Assembly (NCBI GenBank): GCA_049999805.1
Contig: JBNGIO010006249.1
Coordinates: 314,140-334,139, forward strand
Origin: Folioceros fuciformis
Taxonomy: Eukaryota
Length of the DNA stretch: 20,000 nt
Reading direction: 5' to 3'
Shown: positions 3,400 through 19,517 of the stretch, piece by piece
Layout of the letters: each line of letters starts with the position of its first letter
Position numbering within the stretch: position 1 is the stretch's first letter
Notes under the pieces: generated by a model
The model's database searches: none
The model's input: only the letters and a program-made list of their open reading frames with translations
What the model was told of the DNA's origin: nothing
Made by a program: the position numbers and the translations under genes

Positions 3400-6300
3400 T
3401 CAAGCAAGCAGCCCAGCGTCAACGTAAGTATCTTTCTCTGAAACCTCCTTCCCAACCTGCTCAAGCAGCAAGACCACATGCTGGATTGTGGGTCTTTTCT
3501 GCGGGATGTGACTCACACACATAGTGGCTACGTCTAAAACTTGGAGCATTTCGCTCTCGTAACCTTGATGTCGCAATAGGACATCAAAGGTCTCTTCTGC
3601 AGTTCCCTTATTCTTCATCTGCTGCACCCAAGACACCAGGTCAGCCACCCCTTTCTTGCGGGAGACCTCTACTGGCCGTCGGCGAGTCAGAAGCTCTAAT
3701 ACTACGACACCAAAACTGTACACATCGCCCCTCAGTGTGGCAATCCATGCTTGCCCATATTCTGGAGGGATATACCCAAGAGTGCCCACCAACTCAGTCG
3801 TCACGTGCGTATCAGCGTTGGCCAGGTGTCTTGCAAGCCCAAAATCTGCAAGATGGGCCTCAAACTTCTCATTGAGGAGAATGTTGCTGCTCTTTATGTC
3901 CCTGTGAACAATGTGAGGCTCACACATTTGATGGAGGTACGCGAGCCCTCTGGCAGTACCCAGTGCAATCCTTCGTCTCATGGGCCAGTCTAGCTTCGAT
4001 CCACCGTCACTCTTTTCATGCAGCCAGAAATCTAGACTCCCGTTCTCCATGTAGTTGTAGATGAGCAAACGGTCGCTCCCAAACCTACAGTAGCCTTGCA
4101 GAGCCACCAGATTCTTGTGCTGAATTCGACCCAGCGTTAGTAGCTCTGCTTGCACCTCCCGCTCAGCTTGCCCTGTGTCACCAGTCAATCTTTTGATGGC
4201 CACATGAGTTCCATCTGACAGGGTTGCCCGGAATACTAAACCAAAACCACCACACCCTATGATGTTGGATTGGTCGAAGTTGTTGGTAGCCTTAACCAAG
4301 TCAGCCGGAGACAGTTTAGACAACTGATCATTGAGATACAGGTCAACACTGAAACTAACCATCCCGTCATCTGTGTACTCAGTCTCATCATCAGTTGGTG
4401 ACTTGACACGGCGTCGAGATAGAATGCACATCGTCAGCAAAGCCAACACACCGGCCAGACCAACGCCAACTCCCATGGTCAGTCCCAAGATGGCTCTTTT
4501 GCTTAGCCTTCGGTCATCGTACACAGGCAAATATGAGCTGTGAGGACTGGAGGCTGTGTCAAACATAGTGCCACATTTCTGCGACAAAGACCCACCACAA
4601 AGAAGAGGGTTACCAAGAAAGGAGGTACTAGGGAAGGAATCAAACTGGGGACCTTCAGGAATGGGACCAGAGAGGTTGTTATTCGAGACATCGAACAAAG
4701 CAAGAAAGTTCAGCGCTGTCAACGAGGAAGGGATAGGGCCAGACAGGGAATTGTTGGCAAGGTTCAGGGAGTACATGTTACTCATGTTTGACAATGAGTC
4801 CGGAATAGGGCCAGTCAGATTATTGTGGCTCAGATCAAGGGCCATGACACTGCGTAACCAGCCCAGTGCATCGGGAATCTGACCATGAAACTGGTTGTAC
4901 CCAAGAAGCAGTGAAGGAGGAAAGGAACTCAACTTGGTGTATCTCTGAGGATAGGCACCACTGCTTGTGTTCTTTCTCACAAAGAGAACAAGCGTGGTAA
5001 CCTCAACCAGACCAGTAGTACTCACGCTCTCTCCTCTAAAACTTGGGGCAGTGGACAGATTATGTGGAATAGGACCTGTCAAAGTGTTGTTTGAAAGTTC
5101 CAAGTAGATCAAATGCTGCAGGTCGCTAATCCACGGTGGTATAGAGCCGTTGAAGTGATTCCACGACAGATCCAACAATTGCAACTTGCTGCAGTTACCA
5201 ATCCAGTCCGGAATTGGCCCCTTGAGACCACAAAACCCTACAGCCAGGAGCTGCAGGTTAGGAAATGGTGAAATTTTAGCAGGAATCTCACCCCCCAGCC
5301 AAGGATTCTTTGTCAAGAGCATGGACACCAAGGCCGTACATCCATCCAACTCTGGTGGTATGCCCCCTGTGAGATTGTTAAAAGACAGAGATAAGGTTGT
5401 TAGGTTCTTCAACAGTCCGAGCTGAGGAGGGATCATCCCAGTGAGACTGTTTGTGCCAAGCACAAGGGCCTCCAGGTGACTACACAGGCTAACATTTGAA
5501 GGGATGACACCAGATAGGGTGTTGAATGACAAGTCAATAATCGTGATGTTAGGAAGCTTCTCGAAGTCAAGAGATATATCCCCAGTTAAGTTATTGCGCC
5601 TGAGATTGAGGACAAGAAGATTGTTGCAATCTGAGAGCTGGAGGGGAATATGTCCGGTGAACTGGTTAGAACTAAGGTCGAGCCGCTCCAAAGATGTCAA
5701 GGACCCCAACTCAGGTGGAATAGAGCCAGATAAAGAGTTGCTGGCAAGCACCAGATTCGTCAGGTTGGCCAAGCTTGCCACTGAGGCACTCAGATTTCCC
5801 ACTAGATGATTAAATTCCATAGAAAGCACGGTAAGGCTCTCCAAGCGAAACATGGTGTCAGGAATTTCGCCGCTGAGGTTATTATAACCCAGATCCAGAA
5901 CCTGAAGACTGGAACATAGGGAGATGGCGGGAGATAAGTTCCCACCCAGATCGTTGGCCGAGACATTTAGTATCCGGAGGCTGCCCTTCATAGAGCAAAT
6001 ATCTGCGTTGAAGTCACCTTCCAACTGATTGGAGCTGAGGTCAATGACCGTAAGAGCAGAACAGTTTAACAGGAGGGGAAGCAGTCCCGTAATTTGGTTA
6101 TAGGATACATTCAGGTATTCCAGGCTCCCTAGATTCTCCAGAGCTTGCAGTGAAGACGACAACCTGTTTAGACTGAGATCAAGACTCTTCAAACCGGAGC
6201 TGGAGAAGTTCACGGGGACAGGGTCAGAAAGGCCGTTGCTACTCAAGTTCAGTTCCACAAGGCTAGAACTCTGCTCAAAAACAGCTGCACAGCAATTAAA

Positions 6301-6834
6301 GCTGTTGTTGCTGAGGTCAACTTTTTTCAAAGACAGGAGCAGGCCCAGGTCCTTAGGAAGAGACCCGTAGAGCAAATTTGACGACAGATCCAACCCCTCC
6401 AGTCCGGACAAGTTCCTCCACGCCAACTCGTCGATGGTACCATTGAGCCCCAATTGTGCCAAGTCGAGATACGCAACCCTGTACACATTCTTGTTCGCAG
6501 TACTGTCGGCCTGTGACACTCCTCCTCCAACCCCGCTCGCTCCCTTCCTGCACTTAACCCCCGGCCAGCTGCAACAGCTGCTGTCGTTCGACCATACGCC
6601 GAGCACATCGGCCCCGTTAGCCAAAACCTCCTTCAAACTCAGCAGAAAATTCTGATCCCCGATGTCGCAATACGACAGCATCGGGATGAGCGACGCCCCA
6701 GGGCTGGAATCCCCATCCGGAGCAGGCGCAGGCGCAGGAACAGGCCCGGGAGCGACGTGGTCGCAGAGGCAGCACGAGAGGAAGCAGCAGCAGGAGAAGA
6801 AGAGGAGGAAGAGCCACGTCCCTCTAACCATCAT
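3400..6834 (-). CDS. Phytosulfokine-receptor-like LRR receptor kinase (LRR-X; PSKR/PSY1R group), intronless, about 1144 aa
   Basis: First ATG is at 6834 (the ORF track starts at a TTG). Contains a signal peptide, an N-cap CCSWPGVKC, many plant LRRs (LxxLxLxxNxLxGxIP), a PSKR-type island (LFVRKNTSSGAYPQRYTKLSSFPPSLLL), a C-cap FLGNPLLCG and a TM helix. The kinase domain is RD-type: LVKATNNFDQSNIIGCGGFGLV, VAIK, HRDIKSSN, DFGLAR, THVTTELVGTLGYIPPEYGQAWIATLRGDVYSFG. Confidence 0.93.
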   Translation of the reverse strand: MMVRGTWLFLLFFSCCCFLSCCLCDHVAPGPVPAPAPAPDGDSSPGASLIPMLSYCDIGDQNFLLSLKEVLANGADVLGVWSNDSSCCSWPGVKCRKGASGVGGGVSQADSTANKNVYRVAYLDLAQLGLNGTIDELAWRNLSGLEGLDLSSNLLYGSLPKDLGLLLSLKKVDLSNNSFNCCAAVFEQSSSLVELNLSSNGLSDPVPVNFSSSGLKSLDLSLNRLSSSLQALENLGSLEYLNVSYNQITGLLPLLLNCSALTVIDLSSNQLEGDFNADICSMKGSLRILNVSANDLGGNLSPAISLCSSLQVLDLGYNNLSGEIPDTMFRLESLTVLSMEFNHLVGNLSASVASLANLTNLVLASNSLSGSIPPELGSLTSLERLDLSSNQFTGHIPLQLSDCNNLLVLNLRRNNLTGDISLDFEKLPNITIIDLSFNTLSGVIPSNVSLCSHLEALVLGTNSLTGMIPPQLGLLKNLTTLSLSFNNLTGGIPPELDGCTALVSMLLTKNPWLGGEIPAKISPFPNLQLLAVGFCGLKGPIPDWIGNCSKLQLLDLSWNHFNGSIPPWISDLQHLIYLELSNNTLTGPIPHNLSTAPSFRGESVSTTGLVEVTTLVLFVRKNTSSGAYPQRYTKLSSFPPSLLLGYNQFHGQIPDALGWLRSVMALDLSHNNLTGPIPDSLSNMSNMYSLNLANNSLSGPIPSSLTALNFLALFDVSNNNLSGPIPEGPQFDSFPSTSFLGNPLLCGGSLSQKCGTMFDTASSPHSSYLPVYDDRRLSKRAILGLTMGVGVGLAGVLALLTMCILSRRRVKSPTDDETEYTDDGMVSFSVDLYLNDQLSKLSPADLVKATNNFDQSNIIGCGGFGLVFRATLSDGTHVAIKRLTGDTGQAEREVQAELLTLGRIQHKNLVALQGYCRFGSDRLLIYNYMENGSLDFWLHEKSDGGSKLDWPMRRRIALGTARGLAYLHQMCEPHIVHRDIKSSNILLNEKFEAHLADFGLARHLANADTHVTTELVGTLGYIPPEYGQAWIATLRGDVYSFGVVVLELLTRRRPVEVSRKKGVADLVSWVQQMKNKGTAEETFDVLLRHQGYESEMLQVLDVATMCVSHIPQKRPTIQHVVLLLEQVGKEVSEKDTYVDAGLLA

Positions 6835-7139: not shown

Positions 7140-7539
7140 NNNNNNNNNNNNNNNNNNNNNNNNNNNNNNNNNNNNNNNNNNNNNNNNNNNNNNNNNNNNN
7201 NNNNNNNNNNNNNNNNNNNNNNNNNNNNNNNNNNNNNNNNNNNNNNNNNNNNNNNNNNNNNNNNNNNNNNNNNNNNNNNNNNNNNNNNNNNNNNNNNNNN
7301 NNNNNNNNNNNNNNNNNNNNNNNNNNNNNNNNNNNNNNNNNNNNNNNNNNNNNNNNNNNNNNNNNNNNNNNNNNNNNNNNNNNNNNNNNNNNNNNNNNNN
7401 NNNNNNNNNNNNNNNNNNNNNNNNNNNNNNNNNNNNNNNNNNNNNNNNNNNNNNNNNNNNNNNNNNNNNNNNNNNNNNNNNNNNNNNNNNNNNNNNNNNN
7501 NNNNNNNNNNNNNNNNNNNNNNNNNNNNNNNNNNNNNNN
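7140..7539. other. Assembly gap (400 N) upstream of the receptor kinase
   Basis: Run of N in the sequence. Confidence 0.99.
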
Positions 7540-9107: not shown

Positions 9108-9284
9108 CCATTAGAACAGAAGGTGAAGGCCATTAGAACAGAAGGTGAAGGCCATTAAAACAGAAGATGAAGGCCATTAAAACAGAAGATGAAGGCCATT
9201 AGAACAGAAGATGAAGGCCATTAGAACNNNNNNNNNNTAGAACAGAAGATGAAGGCCATTAGAACAGAAGATGAAGGCCATTAG
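9108..9284. repeat. 22-bp minisatellite (CCATTAGAACAGAAGRTGAAGG), at least 7 copies, interrupted by a 10-N gap (9228-9237)
   Basis: Unit starts at 9108, 9130, 9152, 9174, 9196 and 9218, then 9256 and 9278 after the gap. Copies abut directly with no spacers. Confidence 0.95.
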
Positions 9285-12057: not shown

Positions 12058-14553
12058 ATGCAAGCGGCGGCCATGCTGGGCTTGTTGTGCCCGCCTCGCC
12101 CTTGGCTTCGGCATGCTGGTGTGCAGGCACTCGTCTTTTGTGGATCTGACAAGGAGCTGAAGTGTTCGGTTTGGCGGAGACCCGGTGACGATGTTGCTAG
12201 GCCATGGGAATCCGCGGGCTCGGGGAGAGTGGTATTCGTTGGGCTGTGGAATAGGAGAGTCTTCTACCCTCTGTTTTCCCAGAATGCTGAGCAAGGGAGG
12301 GGCGACATGGGAGTGGACGATGCAGGTGATTCTGCCGGGGCCGCATCTCATGAATGCAATGGGTATGATGCCATGGTCGAAGCTAGTGCCGCTGTTGCAG
12401 AATTCATGGTGCAGGGCGGGCTGTCCGAAGAGGATGCTCTCTCAGTGTCTGCCAAAGCGCCTGTCTATGCTCGAAGGCTGATTGATGCCGACAAGGAGTT
12501 GAGCGAGCTGGGCATCTTGAGTTCAGGTGCAGTTGCCACGACTAGTTACTATGATAGCGATCCCGCAGTGTACAGATTTCGGTTGCTTCAGATTGCTTTC
12601 AGGAGCTCTGGAAGGCAGCTAGCCCCTTTCCTAGAGAGTGTCGGTGTTCGCCTTTCTCAGATCCCGAGGATAGCGCACCTCCTGTCTGGAAGGAATTTGG
12701 CAGACCTGTTGGAGAAGGTGGTGTCGTGTTCTACTTGTCTAGTTGGTTGCTGCTTGTGGCATCCGCAACGTTGGGACATGGTTGGGTTTCTGGGTTCCTG
12801 AACTGATCGTCTTCTCTTGTTTCAGGTGAGGTTTTTAGAGGCGTTGCTGCCGCCAGCAGACGGTAGGAAAGTGGGTCTGGAAGATCAAATTCGAGTTATG
12901 ATGAAGAGATTATCTCTCTATGTCGATGACGATCTTCAGAGGACGCTTTCTCTGTTTGAAAAGGTTCAAGTTCCGCTCGTGATCGCTCTGCTGTTTGAAA
13001 CACTGATGTCTGCTACCCTTTGAGGCGTCTAACTAGTTTGTGTCTTGTTTTGCCACTGGTAGATGGAAGCTCAGCCTCAGGGAGTCGCTTGTTTCAATGC
13101 CAAAAGCAAGGCTATGGCCCTTCTTGTTGAAAGCTTTCCTCAAATTCTGGTCCGGAGTCTGGAGTTGCAGCTGAAACCTGTGCTCTCCTACTTGGAGGAA
13201 GTAGGTGTGCCAAGACAGAGCTTTGGACGTGTCATCTTGTGCTTCCCTCCGTTCCTGCAATACGATGTCGAGGAGGAGCTAAAGCCACGCATGAAGAAGC
13301 TAAGAGCAGTAAGTCGCAAGCCAGCATATTCACACACCTTGGGAAATAGTGTCGAGTGTCAGCCTTGATGTTTTCCTCTTGGTGCTCCAGGTAGGTGTGC
13401 GTGCAAGGGATCTAGGGCACATGATTGTAAAATATCCTTGGCTTCTGAGCAGGTGTGTGGAGGACAATGTTCCCACGACTGTAGAGTTTCTGGACGCCGT
13501 GAAGGTATGCCAACCTCGCTTTTCCGATGCACAAGATGCTGCTTGGTAGGGTTCGTCTGCTTCCATTCTGACTTCAGGCCTTTGATCCAGGTACCTAAAA
13601 GCAAGCTGCACCGTGCAATCACAAAGTATCCTCTGCTCTTAGGCGGCTCACCAACACGAACTTTCCAGCCGATGATTGATGCTATGAATCAGGTCGGTGC
13701 CAAGAGCAGGAGACTTGGAGGAGCAATTGGCAGTTCGCCAAACCTCCTCCTGAGGGGCCCTCGGGAGTTCCAGCAGGCAAGCCTTTGTTTTCTTGTTTGG
13801 GCTGCTCGTTGTTATGCTAGCGGATCCGCCGCGCCTGGACTGTGTCCTGGCACAAGTCTTTCTGTGTTAGACCATGGCTCCGTCATCACTGGCCTACCTG
13901 GACTTCTGCGGAGCAGGTTGTACAATTCTTGCGAGACATTGGTGTGGAGAGTGACGACGATGTGAAGAAAATTCTCCTTCGTACACCAGAGGTCTTCTCT
14001 TCGAATATTGAGAAGACGCTGCAGCGCAATTTGAACTATCTGGTGGAGCTTGGAGTTCCACGAGAGCAACTTGGGAGGGTAGTGAGGTGGTACCCCCAAG
14101 TACTGTCAATGAGTGTCACTACGTCAATCAAACCACGGTATGTGCCTGTAGCCTGGACTGAACCATGTACAAAGATCTTCATAGTCCGAGAAATGAGAGC
14201 GCGCCTGACGTCTCATTGCTTACAGAATGGACTACCTTCAGGAAAGGGGGTTATGCCAGGAAGATGTGGCTGAAATGGTGTACCGGTTTCCACCACTTGT
14301 TGGATACTCCATCGCGGCTGTTCTGAAACCCAAGTTAGACTTCCTGGTGGACTCCATGGGCAAACCTGTAGAAGACGTATTTTTCTACCCCAGGTTTTTC
14401 AGCTTCTCTCTCGAGAAAAGAATCAAACCGAGAGCTATGGTGCTTGCGAGGCGCAAGTTGGACTTCGACCTGCAAATAGTCCTGTCCAAGTCAGACCAAG
14501 AGTTTGCTGCGGAATATCTGGGGGTGGGGAGAATGCTGGTACCAACTGTATGA
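12058..14553 (+). CDS. mTERF-family (mitochondrial transcription termination factor-like) organellar protein, about 630 aa. Exons 12058-12717, 12826-12963, 13063-13308, 13391-13504, 13591-13776, 13917-14137, 14226-14553
   Basis: Repeated mTERF motifs (ESFPQILVRS..LKPVLSYLEEVGV, KYPWLLS, RTPEVFSSNIEKTL, RFPPLVGYSI..VLKPKLDFL) and the C-terminal YPRFFSFSLEKRIKPR. The hand-derived exons sum to 1893 nt in frame. The start codon is uncertain (in-frame ATG also at 11923). The N-terminus resembles a transit peptide. Confidence 0.88.
13777..13916 (+). other. GC-AG intron (fifth intron of the mTERF gene)
   Basis: Donor CAG|GCAAGC matches the GC-type consensus and the acceptor is GAGCAG|GTT. The join restores ...PREFQQ|VVQFLRDIG in frame. 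Confidence 0.75.
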
Positions 14554-14787
14554 TCGAGTGGCTAAGACGACAGCTTCTGTCTCAGACCCGGCAGGCAGGT
14601 CGATATTCAGGCGCACTGGGGTGCAAATTGCGAGACCCTCCTGAGGCGAAGGAAACAGAATGCGACAGACTCCCGCACTTTGCAAGGATATTTTATCTGT
14701 TCTGTCCTCCCTTGTATACTGGCCCATCTCTGCCACAGTGCCAAGCTCCTCATACTGATCTCCAGGAGATCCCACTCAGCGGCAAGT

Positions 14788-15927
14788 ATGAGTAAACATT
14801 TCCTTCTACTCTATGGACTGGGCCACGGCGCATGGACATGGTTCAAGATAGTAGCTTTGCTGCAAAAGGACGGCCACAGGGCCACTGCCATCGACAACCC
14901 AGCGCAGGGCAAGGATGTCACCGACCCTGAATCGATCACCACTCTGGCTCAACTGTCCAGCAACGCTATCAGGTTCCTGGAATCTCTGCCGGAGTCGGAG
15001 AGGGTGATGGCATCCATCCGCCTCATGCTTCACCAGTCATGGACTTCACCTAAGCTTGACCTCAACTCATCTTTCTCCCCCTTTCTCACCCGCCACAGGT
15101 CATCTTGGTTGCTCACTGCTACGGCGGATTGGTAGCAAATTACATCCTCGAGCATCTTCCGCACAAGGTTTCCGCCGCCGTCTACGTTTCCGGATACATG
15201 TTCCCAAGTCAAGACATGAAATCGGTTGCCAAGGTAGATAACCTAAGCGGAGGGAGCCTCCTTGACCCCTTGAACTAGCCTGCCTGGGCCTCATCCAACT
15301 TACTCCTTGCTCCTGTGGCATCACAGTTCTTAGACGTAGATGCTGTTGAATCTGGAGCTCTGGATCTCACTTACGCAAAGGACGCGACAAACTTCGAACC
15401 ACTCTCCATTTCGCTAATCCCGAGGGCTGGCTGGCTCTACCAACTGAGTCCTCCAGAGGTGAACTTGTTTTGCGCCTGCCAAATGCTTCTGGTACCAGTT
15501 CATGCTCTCTCTCACACCTTGGAATGCTTCGCAGACTGTGGCTCTGCCCACAAGCCTCCTCAAGCCTGGCGCGTGTTTACCTGTCGAAGAAGTTGCTATC
15601 AAGCTCTCGCCAGAGCGATACGGATCCGTGCCACGCGTGTTCATCCGCCTCGTCCAGGACCGTGCCGTGGTACCCCAGGTAGCGGATGCCCTAATCTCGT
15701 CTAATCCTCCCTCTGAGGTCCTGAGCATTGATACCGATCACAGTCCCTTCTTCTCCGCACCAATCGAGCTACACCAGCATCTCATCCACTTCGCGCAAGC
15801 CTACACCTATCTCTGCCCCGCGGTGAGCGTAGAGCTCTCACCATTCCTAGCAGTGTGGCATCGTCCGCGTGAGACTCTGTTCCTATCTGGCAAGCTCTTC
15901 GTCCTGTCTACCGGCGTGTCAAGCTGA
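14788..15927 (+). CDS. SABP2/MES-family methylesterase-like alpha/beta hydrolase with Cys at the nucleophile position, about 291 aa. Exons 14788-15003, 15099-15233, 15327-15458, 15535-15927 (3' end uncertain)
   Basis: Spliced protein: MSKHFLLLYGLGHGAWTWFKIVALLQKDGHRATAID...ESER|VILVAHCYGGLV...KVSAAVYVSGYM...|...LYQLSPPE|...RYGSVPRVFIRLVQDRAV...NPPSEVLSIDTDHSPFFSAP. All introns are GT-AG, phase 0. The triad Asp (QDRA) and His (DHSPFFS) are present. Confidence 0.88.
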
Positions 15928-16787
15928 AGACGGAGACGGGAATCACTACATTCTTCGGCTCTGTCTTACGGTTTATTGCGAAACTCTCCGGCATGCCCAC
16001 TACCAACATTTTCAAGCCAACGTATCATCAGGACCTCTCCCAGCACTCTTCCAAAGCCACGTGCTAATCACAAGTGGAAATCACGCAGCTTGCACGTAGC
16101 CAGGCTTGTGTCTCCCGCGATTCGACTCCATAGCAAATTCCTTGTCGAGCAATGTATTGTTATTGCTCTGTGTAATGCAAATGGTGTTGCACTTTTTGTT
16201 ATCAAGTTATATTTTTTACAAGCTTCTGCGAAGTATCGGTCAATGAATGCAACTTGAATTGGAAGGTAAGTAGTACGAAACAAATGTAGCTACATATTAA
16301 ATGATGAATTAGTTTAATTGTAACACTTCAGTTGTAGGAGGTCAGTCGACATCTTGAATACAAGCTTGTCCGGGACGTCGAGTCTTCTGTGGAGTACTTG
16401 TCCTTAGAGCGTGTGAAGTTCTCGTTTCGCACTGACGACAAGGACGAGAAGGTCCGTGTTCCTGCCTTCAGGGACTGGAAGAAGAAAACTGTTTCAGAAA
16501 CTATTAGAAGTGCTGGAAGCAGTTCCACTGCACAGTAACCCGGTTGATTGATTAGCGTCCGAGCATCGGAGAATCTTTCGCTGGAATCATGGTGTAGCTT
16601 GCACATTGTGTTAGATCAGTGGATGGTTGCTTGGCACACAGCTGGGTTGTTTTCGATCGATGAATGCTAGGTTGGCACATGCTGGGGTGTTTTGAAGCAG
16701 TGAATGCTAGCAGGGCACATAGCTGGATTGTTGTCAATCAGTGGACGCTATCTTGTCACGCTGGTGGGTGTAACACACTAGTGTGCA

Positions 16788-19517
16788 TCACCCAGTCACG
16801 ACTGTTTCTGCCTGCTCTGCAACTTCCAGTTGCTCATCATCTGCAGGAATAGGACAGGAAGGGTGTTCTTCCGCGGAACCCAGAGACAGTCTCTCCAGCA
16901 TTTGGCCAGCTTCTGCCTTGGATACAAGAAGGTTCACTGTATGCCTTCCTCTCCAACAACCAACGGAGGCACGGCTGCATTCAGCTGCACCCGGCCTGGA
17001 TGTGCCCACCAGCTCTTCAGAGGGCTCAACCAGTGTGATGACACAGCATCCAATGGGAAGGTCTTGCAGAGAGGCAATGAATAACGAGTCTTCGAAGGCA
17101 TGGAAAGGGATTCCCTTACCCAGTAACAAGGTTCCAAAATCCTTCCTCGACCTGCACTGAACGATCTGCTTGCCCATATGCGGCAGCAATGTGGGCAAAC
17201 CTTCTGATACTATTCTGAAGGGGCAAGGTGATATTCCTGCTGCTGTCGACTGCTGCCGTTCGAATACTTGAAGCCCAGCAGAGGTGATCTTCATTGGCTG
17301 CCCTAATGCGTGATTCGCTTCAATGGTTTTCCTGACCGAATCTCCCACGTAGTAGATCCTTTTTAGTCGAGACCTGTCTTCACTTCGAGTGATGAGGTTC
17401 CTCCGCAGCGGAAATGAATCTTTGATACCGTAATAGTCTTCCAAAGTTTTTATGACTTCCTCATCTTGTAGCGGGAGAACAGGATCCACACCACGCCACC
17501 TTCCCTGTTGTTGAAGCCTGCCCTTCGGTTTCTCTTCTAGGCTGGCTTCAGTGTTCCCCTCTGATTGCACAGCGACTACATCATTGACCGCAGCACAACC
17601 CTCCAGGAGATCCGGAGATTTACTAAGTGCCCCATTTTCTTCGGAGGCATCCACACCTTGGAGCTCCTCGACTGAAGAAAGGAGTTCTGTTGCAGGCCTC
17701 TCGCCCTCAGTCCCACCTTCGCCATCGGCTGTCATTGCTGACTGACTCAGATTGCTGCCAGCCTCATCTTGAGCTGAGATACGAAACATGGTCAGGAAAA
17801 GAGACTGGGTGAGGGTAAACCAAAAAGAAAAAAAAATGAAGCGGCTCGAGGGTCAAGTTTGCACACCAGTTTCATCAGCTTCAACCCTGGGAACAAGCCC
17901 ATTATCCTCCTTTGGGTTGCCTATCCGCTTTCTTGAATTGAACTGTTCAGAACTCTTCTGTGCATTGGGCTGCCAGGGAGAAACCTTTCTCAACACTGCA
18001 ATAAAGAACCCACCGGTGTCCTGATCGTGAGGAAGTATTCTCATGCATCTTTCCAGGGGCAAATCCGACACCTCACTTTCAAGCTCTTCTTCTTCCCTCT
18101 CCCCAACACTTCTCCGTTCCTCATCCCCTGACCTCTTGACGGGGCCTGCTTGAAGAGCATCTTCACTGTTTGCCTCTGTTTCTAGACTGTCAACATCATG
18201 AGATTCATTGCCGGTATCAACAGCAGCCCCACTGCCATTATCGGCCTCAGTCCTAGGTGTCCTTCCTACAAAATTGTCAGCAGCATCTCTAACAAATCCT
18301 TGTCCAGAAGGAAACATAGTCACAACAACGTTCCCTGCTCGGTGCATGTTGACCTGGGAAGCAGAACTGAGCCACAGTCCATGATCTCTAACTCTCCAGG
18401 TCTTCATTCCAGGTCTCCTCTTCAGCTCCGGGAGGGCATGAGACATGTCCAAGAGCTCCATGCTGCCTCCACTCTCCCTCAATATGGCGCTCACAACAGC
18501 CTCATCCTCGATGGGGTTCAGGGAACATGTCGAGTACACCAGAACCCCACCAACTTTGAGCAATGCAACTCCTCGCATAGCAATCTGAATCTGGAGCCGG
18601 TGCAACCCGTTCGCCACTCCTGAATTCCACTTCTTCCAAATGTCAGGTGCCTTCCTCACTGTCCCATCTCCACTACAAGGTACATCGCACAGAATGCGAT
18701 CGAACAGAAGCCCGGCATCCGCGTCCTTCAATCCGGGAAACCGCTGAGCCTCATGATTGGTGACCAGGATGTTGGGGCTGCACATCCGCTTGGTCTGATG
18801 GACCAGCAGGTGACAGCGCTGCACATCAGAGTCATTCGCGATGACCATGCCCTGAGGAATCTCCCCCGGCCCGACAGTGCTGTGCACCATCTCCAGCAGC
18901 TGGAAAGTCTTGGACCCCGGAGCAGCGCACATGTCCAGCACCCGGTGATGGGGCTGCACATCCAGCAGTAGGGGAGGCACCATGCTCACAGCCTCCTGCC
19001 GCGTGATGCTCCCAATCTCGTTTTCGCGCTTCAGGAACTCGTGAATCTTCTCCAGAATCGGCACTCTCCGCAGCTGGGTGCGGGAGTATCCAAGCTGCCA
19101 TGCCAAGTCGTGAGGATACCATGCCAGAGGGCGGATCGGGTGCACCACTCCGCCTCCCCCCTCCTCGTCCCCGGCATCCACCCCGTCTTTCAGACGCTCG
19201 TAGAAATCCCTCTGCAGCTGCGTCCTGATGTCGCTAGCGAATTGCCCGATCGCGTTGATCCTGAATGTTGTGGGGAGCGGTTTCCGTAGAGTGGCCATGA
19301 ATTCGTCCCACTCCTCGTCTTCCACGATCCTTTGCTTCTTATAGTAGAGATCGAAAGCCGAGCTCTCCAGCACAAACGGTTCCCATCCCTTGGCGGCTGC
19401 ATCGCCGTTGTTCTCGACCTTGGACTTCTTCCACTCGTTTGCCCGGCCGTCCTTGAAATCCCGTCTCTGTGTCCGCCCCCGCTTGTTCCCCCTTCCCCTG
19501 CCTCGCCCTCCTCCCAT
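16788..19517 (-). CDS. TRM4: tRNA/RNA (cytosine-C5)-methyltransferase, TRM4/NSUN2 family, about 878 aa. Exons 17867-19517 and 16788-17773
   Basis: Motifs RQEAVSMVPP, VLDMCAAPGSKT (I), IAND, FDRILCDVPCSGDG (IV), VYSTCS (VI) and PHDQDTGGFFIAVL, plus C-terminal KITSAGLQVFER and FRIVSEGL. First ATG is at 19517. A 93-nt phase-1 GT..AG intron (17774-17866) with a CTGAC branch joins the two ORFs in frame. Confidence 0.93.

Follow-up and report, generated by a model that had tools for sequence, protein, structure and literature searches.

A methylesterase-family gene with cysteine at the catalytic serine position in Folioceros fuciformis: drifting duplicate or cysteine enzyme?

Does a member of the plant methylesterase (MES) family with a cysteine in place of the catalytic serine of its relatives represent a new kind of enzyme, or a duplicate that has drifted away from the ancestral chemistry? 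The question is raised by one gene in a window of 20,000 nucleotides (the whole stretch of Folioceros fuciformis DNA that was analysed here), for which a preliminary description, made from the letters alone, had proposed a Cys nucleophile and either altered chemistry or a ligand-binding role. We conclude that the gene appears closer to a duplicate in drift than to an established new enzyme type. The explanation that we favour, tentatively and with a little less than even confidence, is that of an old, lineage-restricted SABP2/MES duplicate released from selection for methyl-ester hydrolysis, the functional steps of which we infer.

Under a GT..AG splice model in which all introns are phase 0, the esterase-like gene comprises four exons that join into an open frame of 291 codons (Table 1). 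The start ATG is preserved, as is every one of the six splice dinucleotides, and the exons contain neither a frameshift nor an internal stop; GC3 is 0.62, which lies inside the range of the neighbouring genes (0.57-0.78) and is uninformative. The frame of exon 2 had been said to be absent from the track of open reading frames, which was mistaken, as it appears in the stop-to-stop list at 15060-15278. The position of intron 1 is ancestral: among 148 aligned exon-1 matches, drawn from the best 150 of 910, 76 stop short of residue 85, 50 of them at residues 72-75. The short introns and tight gene spacing fit a host that is probably a hornwort, as its nearest relative suggests, gene density being a feature noted in the available text of PMC8075897.

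Table 1. Positions of the esterase-like gene, its notable residues and the other features of the window, numbered from the first letter of the window.
Feature	Position	Strand	Remarks
LRR receptor-like kinase	3400-6831	-	Intronless, 1143 residues; LRRNT_2, LRR, Pkinase
Assembly gaps	7140-7539 and 9228-9237		400 and 10 N
Cytochrome P450 ORF	9960-11519	-	Intronless; PF00067; head to head with mTERF gene; GC3 0.78
mTERF-family gene	about 12058-14553	+	Pfam PF02536 on two exons
mTERF stop	14551..14553	+	234 nt before esterase ATG
Exon 1	14788..15003	+	Met1-Arg72; strands beta3-beta4 and oxyanion loop
HG motif, Tyr9-Gly10	14812..14817	+	His to Tyr; Gly10 (SABP2 Gly12, esterase type) intact
Intron 1	15004..15098	+	95 nt, phase 0, donor AGG/GTGATG (slash at the junction); retained in run X3
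Exon 2	15099..15233	+	Val73-Lys117; beta5, nucleophile elbow AHCYGG, beta6
Cys79, TGC	15117..15119	+	Position of catalytic Ser
Stop under intron 1 retention	15133..15135	+	115-residue product without Cys79
Intron 2	15234..15326	+	93 nt; X3 has a spliced joint and an intron-spanning contig (15204-15354)
Exon 3	15327..15458	+	Phe118-Glu161; cap region, least conserved part
Intron 3	15459..15534	+	76 nt; X3 spliced joint
Exon 4	15535..15927	+	Thr162-Ser291 and stop; acid loop, His loop DTDHSPFFS, C-terminal helix, tail
Asp203	15658..15660	+	Catalytic acid position; Asp in 162/163 aligned homologues
His230	15739..15741	+	Catalytic base position; His in 163/163 aligned homologues
C-terminal tail, 39 residues	15808..15924	+	Begins at codon 253, TAT
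NSUN2/Trm4-type RNA cytosine methyltransferase gene	16788-19517	-	PF01189, PF25376, PF25378

The assignment to the methylesterase family, that of SABP2, MJE and PNAE, as first proposed, was borne out by structure matches for exons 1, 2 and 4, by the family profile and by placement among plant MES proteins. The best PDB matches of exon 1 are hydroxynitrile lyases, SABP2 and MKS1, with E down to 1.5e-14, and exon 2 aligns column for column with SABP2-family structures at the nucleophile elbow. Exon 2 also fits a 106-row family profile free of gaps, with Cys on the Ser column (hhalign probability 99.0, E 5.5e-18). The proposed Cys at the nucleophile position, in the AHCYGG encoded at 15111-15128 (+), also stands. 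Pfam Abhydrolase_1 and Abhydrolase_6 matches on single exons, with exon 1 taken as a fragment, remained under the curated cut-offs.

It is very unlikely that Cys79 is an assembly error. Two DNA runs (X1 and X2) and the RNA-containing run X3 had zero alternative letters and zero indels across 13000-16400; all three read TGC, and AGC, for which base 15117 was to be checked, occurred nowhere. A further run, X8, had no cover here, which carries no weight. A sequencing or assembly error, or a private allele, masking a true Ser codon would be a small step, TGC being one base away from both AGC and TCC, and X1 and X2 may themselves be the source of the assembly and hence of this window. X3, however, comes from a different sample and a separate study under the same species label, and its contig over the codon has 0 other letters, which leaves this explanation barely credible.

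The closest relatives that we found are a protein of the hornwort Nothoceros aenigmaticus (P0031; EukProt EP00246 P006592) and a Logan protein (P0183), at 41-42% identity and with scores of 207 and 197 bits, respectively, versus 176 for the next homologue. Both have Ser at the nucleophile position (GHSFGG). A quick maximum-likelihood tree of 54 rows united the Folioceros protein (the query) with these two in one clade (SH-aLRT 95) and placed it among 48 plant rows, separate from 6 prokaryote-type rows; its end branch is 0.98, compared with paths of 0.70 and 0.75 for P0031 and P0183. Because these two are 65% identical to each other, the query would be a diverged paralogue or a distant orthologue of them, as judged from sequence comparison. 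A structure model of P0031, which served as a stand-in for the query, had a pLDDT of 94 and a TM of about 0.85 to MKS1 and SABP2. Codon 253 of the query, TAT, aligns with the stop codon of both relatives and differs from a stop codon by a single base; the 39-residue tail gave no match in a Pfam search and no transmembrane segment by hydropathy (maximum 0.77).

A second cysteine was sought more widely. The homologue set held 289 proteins, of which 288 aligned and 210 cover the elbow; they are the tops of longer lists and an incomplete sample of the family. Among these 210 the elbow residue is Ser in 189, Asp in 17 (one of these rows, P0157, being misaligned), Gly in 2, Asn in 2 and Cys in 0. 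An apparent Cys in P0024 proved to be a misaligned fragment that a stricter filter removed. Of 245 exon-4 matches in metagenomes 80 were kept, and all 67 loci that cover the elbow have Ser; exon 1 had no match among the metagenome contigs. A protein search with exon 4 gave 19 matches, the best at 47-52% identity. With exon 2, searched against proteins of 80-2000 residues, none of the 42 candidates scored was a match, and exon 1, searched against 1.84 billion representatives, had none above 55% identity in the best 150 of 910. A profile built from the exons and P0031 returned 2627 matches in 8000 scored candidates, of which the best 120 were examined, so Cys-bearing members elsewhere in the family would be missed. 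The ESM Atlas search returned the same family and nothing further. An orthologue of the esterase was not found in the protein and metagenome searches, the collections of which are poor in hornwort proteins; for instance, none of five ORFs of this window is present in the protein collection.

The triad Asp and His, which in this family follow beta7 and beta8, are retained, as the preliminary description had stated, but their retention is no sign that Cys79 is used, for the same pair is kept in all 11 rows that lack Ser among 49 plant-like homologues (Asp 7, Asn 2, Gly 2). Judged from these alignments, loss of the nucleophile is common in the MES family. In Arabidopsis, MES11, 13 and 15 carry Asp at this position. 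The variants among the aligned homologues are of several forms: AHNIGG, with Asn, occurs in P0260 (Physcomitrium) and P0243, and Gly stands at the nucleophile position of P0194 (Cryptomeria), which has HE in the HG motif, and of P0207, which has HD there. All 11 of the plant-like rows without Ser retain the His of the HG motif and Leu at position 37, whereas the query has lost both; the HG motif had rightly been described as altered, with Tyr9 where 278 of 281 aligned homologues have His. The changes H9Y, L37N, G77A, S79C and A104G all fall within the loops of the oxyanion and nucleophile zones, as those zones are defined in the accessible part of PMC7034887. Gly10, His78, the GG after the nucleophile and the entire His loop are intact. 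A hydroxynitrile lyase of the HbHNL type was considered and rejected; it needs Thr11, Glu79 and Lys236, where the query has Gly10, His78 and Ser231, which are esterase-type residues (the role of SABP2 Gly12 and the diagnostic residues of the lyases are taken from the available text of PMC10473745).

The losses extend well beyond the active site. Of 42 columns with at least 90% conservation among the 49 plant-like homologues the query has lost 10 (11 of 43 if an alignment artefact at the start Met is counted); the other plant-like rows have lost 4.5% at the median and 17% at most. In a mixed set of plant and prokaryote rows the query lost 7 of 29 columns, as large a share being seen in 1 of 108 rows, and of 59 columns that P0031 and P0183 share with the family 14 are lost in the query, compared with 13 in the next most affected row. 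The conserved positions lost are spread protein-wide (H9Y, L37N, P59N, G77A, A104G, D162T, A166P and the ancestral stop) and are not enriched in the catalytic loops (6/20 versus 11/43, Fisher p=0.77).

The query nevertheless matches P0031 at 41 of 55 conserved columns versus 59 of 187 others, a pattern indicating that constraint did act on its lineage. Four of the 14 losses require two or more base changes, and a simulation of neutral decay reproduced 14 losses, four of them multi-base, together with an open frame at a joint P of <=0.0015 at each of the six divergences simulated, a figure that overstates the case since the simulation was substitution-only and ignores indels and the losses expected on any long branch. 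The open frame and this poor fit are evidence against a long-dead pseudogene. Recent death of the gene is another matter: in 34-49% of simulations the frame is still open after 0.02-0.03 neutral substitutions per site, so that such an event would be invisible to them.

Transcription bears on the same question. X3 is not recorded as RNA; we took it as such from its spliced GT..AG joints, which are absent from the DNA runs. These joints span four introns of the upstream mTERF gene and, in the esterase, introns 2 and 3, in agreement with the boundaries of the splice model. No spliced joint was seen in X3 for intron 1, X3 being the sole RNA run and assembled contigs tending to drop rare forms; one contig instead covers 14225 to 15233 without a break, intron 1 included, and ends at the intron-2 donor. 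The proposed splice junctions were thus upheld for introns 2 and 3 and not for intron 1. Carry-over of DNA fails to explain the cover of intron 1, since the bin depths over the mTERF introns in X3 equal those expected from the spliced contig alone. The removal of intron 1 is needed to bring Cys79 in frame: its retention gives a product of 115 residues that lacks Cys79, and a transcript starting downstream of exon 1 would begin at Met106, likewise without it. The X3 contigs neither confirm nor disprove full splicing of the esterase mRNA, and the RNA over intron 1 may come from either strand. Scored against a donor consensus of nine positions, the intron-1 donor has 4 of 9 matches, the lowest among seven donors, and +5G is absent from all three esterase donors and present in all four RNA-supported mTERF donors. 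The substitution K72R abolishes the -2A of the intron-1 donor and may be the cause of its weakening. An alternative donor after 14916, the only other in-frame GT, was rejected, as its use would delete 29 core residues.

The neighbourhood offers a possible source of RNA over the esterase. A single X3 contig covers both the mTERF gene and the esterase, and overlap or read-through of their transcripts is possible. The five joined exons of the mTERF gene form an open frame to the stop, and one of its introns, at 13777-13916 (+), is of the GC..AG type (140 nt, donor CAG before and GCAAGC after the junction), and X3 has an RNA joint across it. The gap that separates the mTERF gene from the esterase contains, at 14660-14758 (+), an upstream ORF of 32 codons out of the esterase frame. 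Downstream, the NSUN2-type gene is convergent with the esterase, and the X3 contig ends at 16150 and 16253 are separated by about 100 nt. The heme-binding motif of cytochromes P450 normally carries a Cys that serves as heme ligand; the P450 of the window has by eye an I-helix AGYETS and a heme motif FSSGRLVSVG with Ser at the expected position, and its axial cysteine may therefore be absent. The LRR receptor-like kinase may be phytosulfokine-receptor-like.

How, then, might such a gene have come about? Its Ser codon has become TGC as one among many changes at conserved positions across the protein. If it is a duplicate freed from methyl-ester hydrolysis, the product would still have the alpha/beta hydrolase fold, with the Asp-His pair and the pocket kept, and Cys79 would presumably be a poor nucleophile in a site tuned for Ser whose oxyanion loop is disturbed, capable of slow turnover of activated esters or thioesters only, or of none. 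Little full-length protein would be made, as the weakened intron-1 donor would mostly be read through, and the remaining role, if any, would be non-hydrolytic, such as the binding of a small acid or ester, or MKS1-type chemistry with His as the base; a non-hydrolytic role is likewise likely for family members with Asp, Asn or Gly. We lean towards this account because the gene groups with relatives that have Ser, has an excess of losses, has lost its stop and has weak donors, and because Asp and His are kept in the family regardless of the nucleophile. Against it, H9Y, L37N, G77A and S79C, the most radical changes near the site, fall on its loops and could equally be co-adaptation to Cys, the esterase-type Gly10 and His78 and the whole His loop are intact, the tree is a quick one with a longish query branch, and the RNA comes from one contig run. 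The preliminary description had counted, as findings that would speak against its proposal, AGC in the reads or a Cys private to this assembly in a gene unexpressed or under relaxed selection; AGC was not what the reads held, and the excess losses, the lost stop, the retained intron 1 and the failure of our searches to turn up a second Cys lineage point in the latter direction. A ligand-binding or other non-hydrolytic role is compatible with these data.

Alternatively, the locus might be a recent pseudogene or untranslated, having diverged under selection and then lately lost its function, its RNA being largely mTERF read-through or 3' overlap with intron 1 kept and residual splicing of introns 2 and 3. 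We regard this as unlikely, if a serious contender. It would account for the missing intron-1 joint and the unbroken contig from the mTERF exon, which DNA carry-over does not explain, given the spliced mTERF introns and the depths in X3; the gap between the two genes is just 234 nt, the donors are weak, the stop is lost, an Ala-to-Pro change falls within a predicted helix, and recent death escapes detection with frames surviving as often as they did in the simulations. Yet frame, ATG and splice dinucleotides are all intact, introns 2 and 3 are spliced exactly at the coding boundaries, and a two-gene contig in one RNA run is no proof of a single transcript. Doubtful, and on the whole improbable, is a working Cys enzyme, in which Cys79, His230 and Asp203 would form a thioester acyl-enzyme that resists water and transfers the acyl moiety to an amine, thiol or alcohol acceptor, or which would open an activated lactone or thioester, with H9Y, L37N, G77A and A104G reshaping the site for sulfur. 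The Cys occupies precisely the elbow position, Asp, His, Gly10 and the GG are kept, several adjacent loop residues changed along with it, the frame stayed open while multi-base changes accumulated, and the fold offers precedents (PMC11878206 and PMC13288461, in their available text) including, in that of PMC6642262, a lipase rescued by four nearby changes. Nonetheless no second Cys member occurred in the 210 aligned proteins or the 67 bacterial-type metagenome loci, the changes are not concentrated at the site, Asp and His are retained whatever the nucleophile, intron 1 is kept in the RNA run, and TGC, a single-base neighbour of Ser codons, is the easiest change by drift. Altered Cys chemistry as first proposed thus goes unsupported beyond its possibility. 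Improbable as well is the reading by which such an enzyme, having arisen among the hormone methylesterases of a bryophyte lineage, would form a thioester intermediate at Cys79 and serve as an acyltransferase or covalent ligand trap with co-adapted H9Y, L37N, G77A and A104G loops, retention of intron 1 acting as a regulated switch on its output. A released and drifting duplicate remains the explanation that we prefer.

The distinction matters for what the gene could teach. A member from outside the seed plants with a changed nucleophile would be a cheap probe of the shift of MES proteins from esterases to other roles, and the characterised MES enzymes are, according to the available part of PMC11644291, all from a few angiosperms, whole groups being uncharacterised. 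If the Cys enzyme were true, it would be the first characterised one of the SABP2/MES family within the literature searched, in which there was no assay of a Cys-bearing MES (subscription journals lie mostly outside its coverage). If Cys79 is inactive, the gene would add another nucleophile loss beside the Asp, Asn, Gly and Ala variants, which is of modest interest.

Among known systems the query stands nearest to P0031 and P0183, which share its length up to the ancestral stop; unlike it, they have GHSFGG, the HG His and a normal stop. Tobacco SABP2 and the plant MES proteins (Ser81-His238-Asp210 in NtSABP2) resemble it in sequence kinship, in the positions of elbow, Asp and His, in the Gly after the HG position and in the conserved intron following exon 1, and differ in having Ser for Cys, His for Tyr in the HG motif, Gly for Ala at the first elbow position and no 39-residue tail; its His loop, DHSPFFS, is of the type of the non-SABP2 clades. 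The change from G-H-S-x-G to A-H-C-Y-G lowers the likelihood that the protein is a methylesterase, not that it belongs to the sequence family, and membership stands despite the Cys because the published family includes members without Ser such as MKS1. In ShMKS1 (Ala-His-Asn) the Ser has been lost and a non-hydrolytic decarboxylase reaction gained, as described in the available text of PMC11644291. ShMKS1 is the top PDB match for exons 2 and 4, a likeness at the family level only, and it has Ala and Asn where the query has Cys and Asp and belongs to a different clade. A tomato survey reports three SlMES proteins in which Cys and Asp take the place of the triad Ser (PMC12083104); the candidates are Solyc03g044740, Solyc06g048570 and Solyc03g095550, the available text not specifying which bears Cys. 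This unassayed angiosperm protein is the only plant MES with Cys at the triad Ser that we found in print, as far as that text goes, and if the report is correct it would represent an independent origin and may bear on novelty.

Beyond the family, dienelactone hydrolases, PHA synthases and Cys-type NRPS thioesterases share with the query the Cys-His-Asp triad, by sequence position. Their profiles (dienelactone hydrolase, PHA synthase, Cys thioesterase) gave no Pfam match for any exon, and the dienelactone hydrolase family gave no PDB match for exons 1, 2 and 4, so these enzymes would be an analogy for a Cys mechanism and not kin. The point made at the outset that Cys triads are known in dienelactone hydrolases of this fold was correct, C-D-H triads being described for dienelactone hydrolase, PHA depolymerase and PHA synthase in the accessible part of PMC11878206. 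Cys-type thioesterases make up about 2% of thioesterases, and one of them cyclises with hydrolysis undetectable (PMC13288461, available text). A Ser-to-Cys swap generally breaks hydrolase activity, and the S105C variant of the lipase CALB had essentially no activity on most esters before a further four changes were introduced (both from the available text of PMC6642262). Should Cys79 work, the Folioceros gene would display natural changes that rescue this normally crippling swap, and would be a natural counterpart of the laboratory-evolved cysteine lipase.
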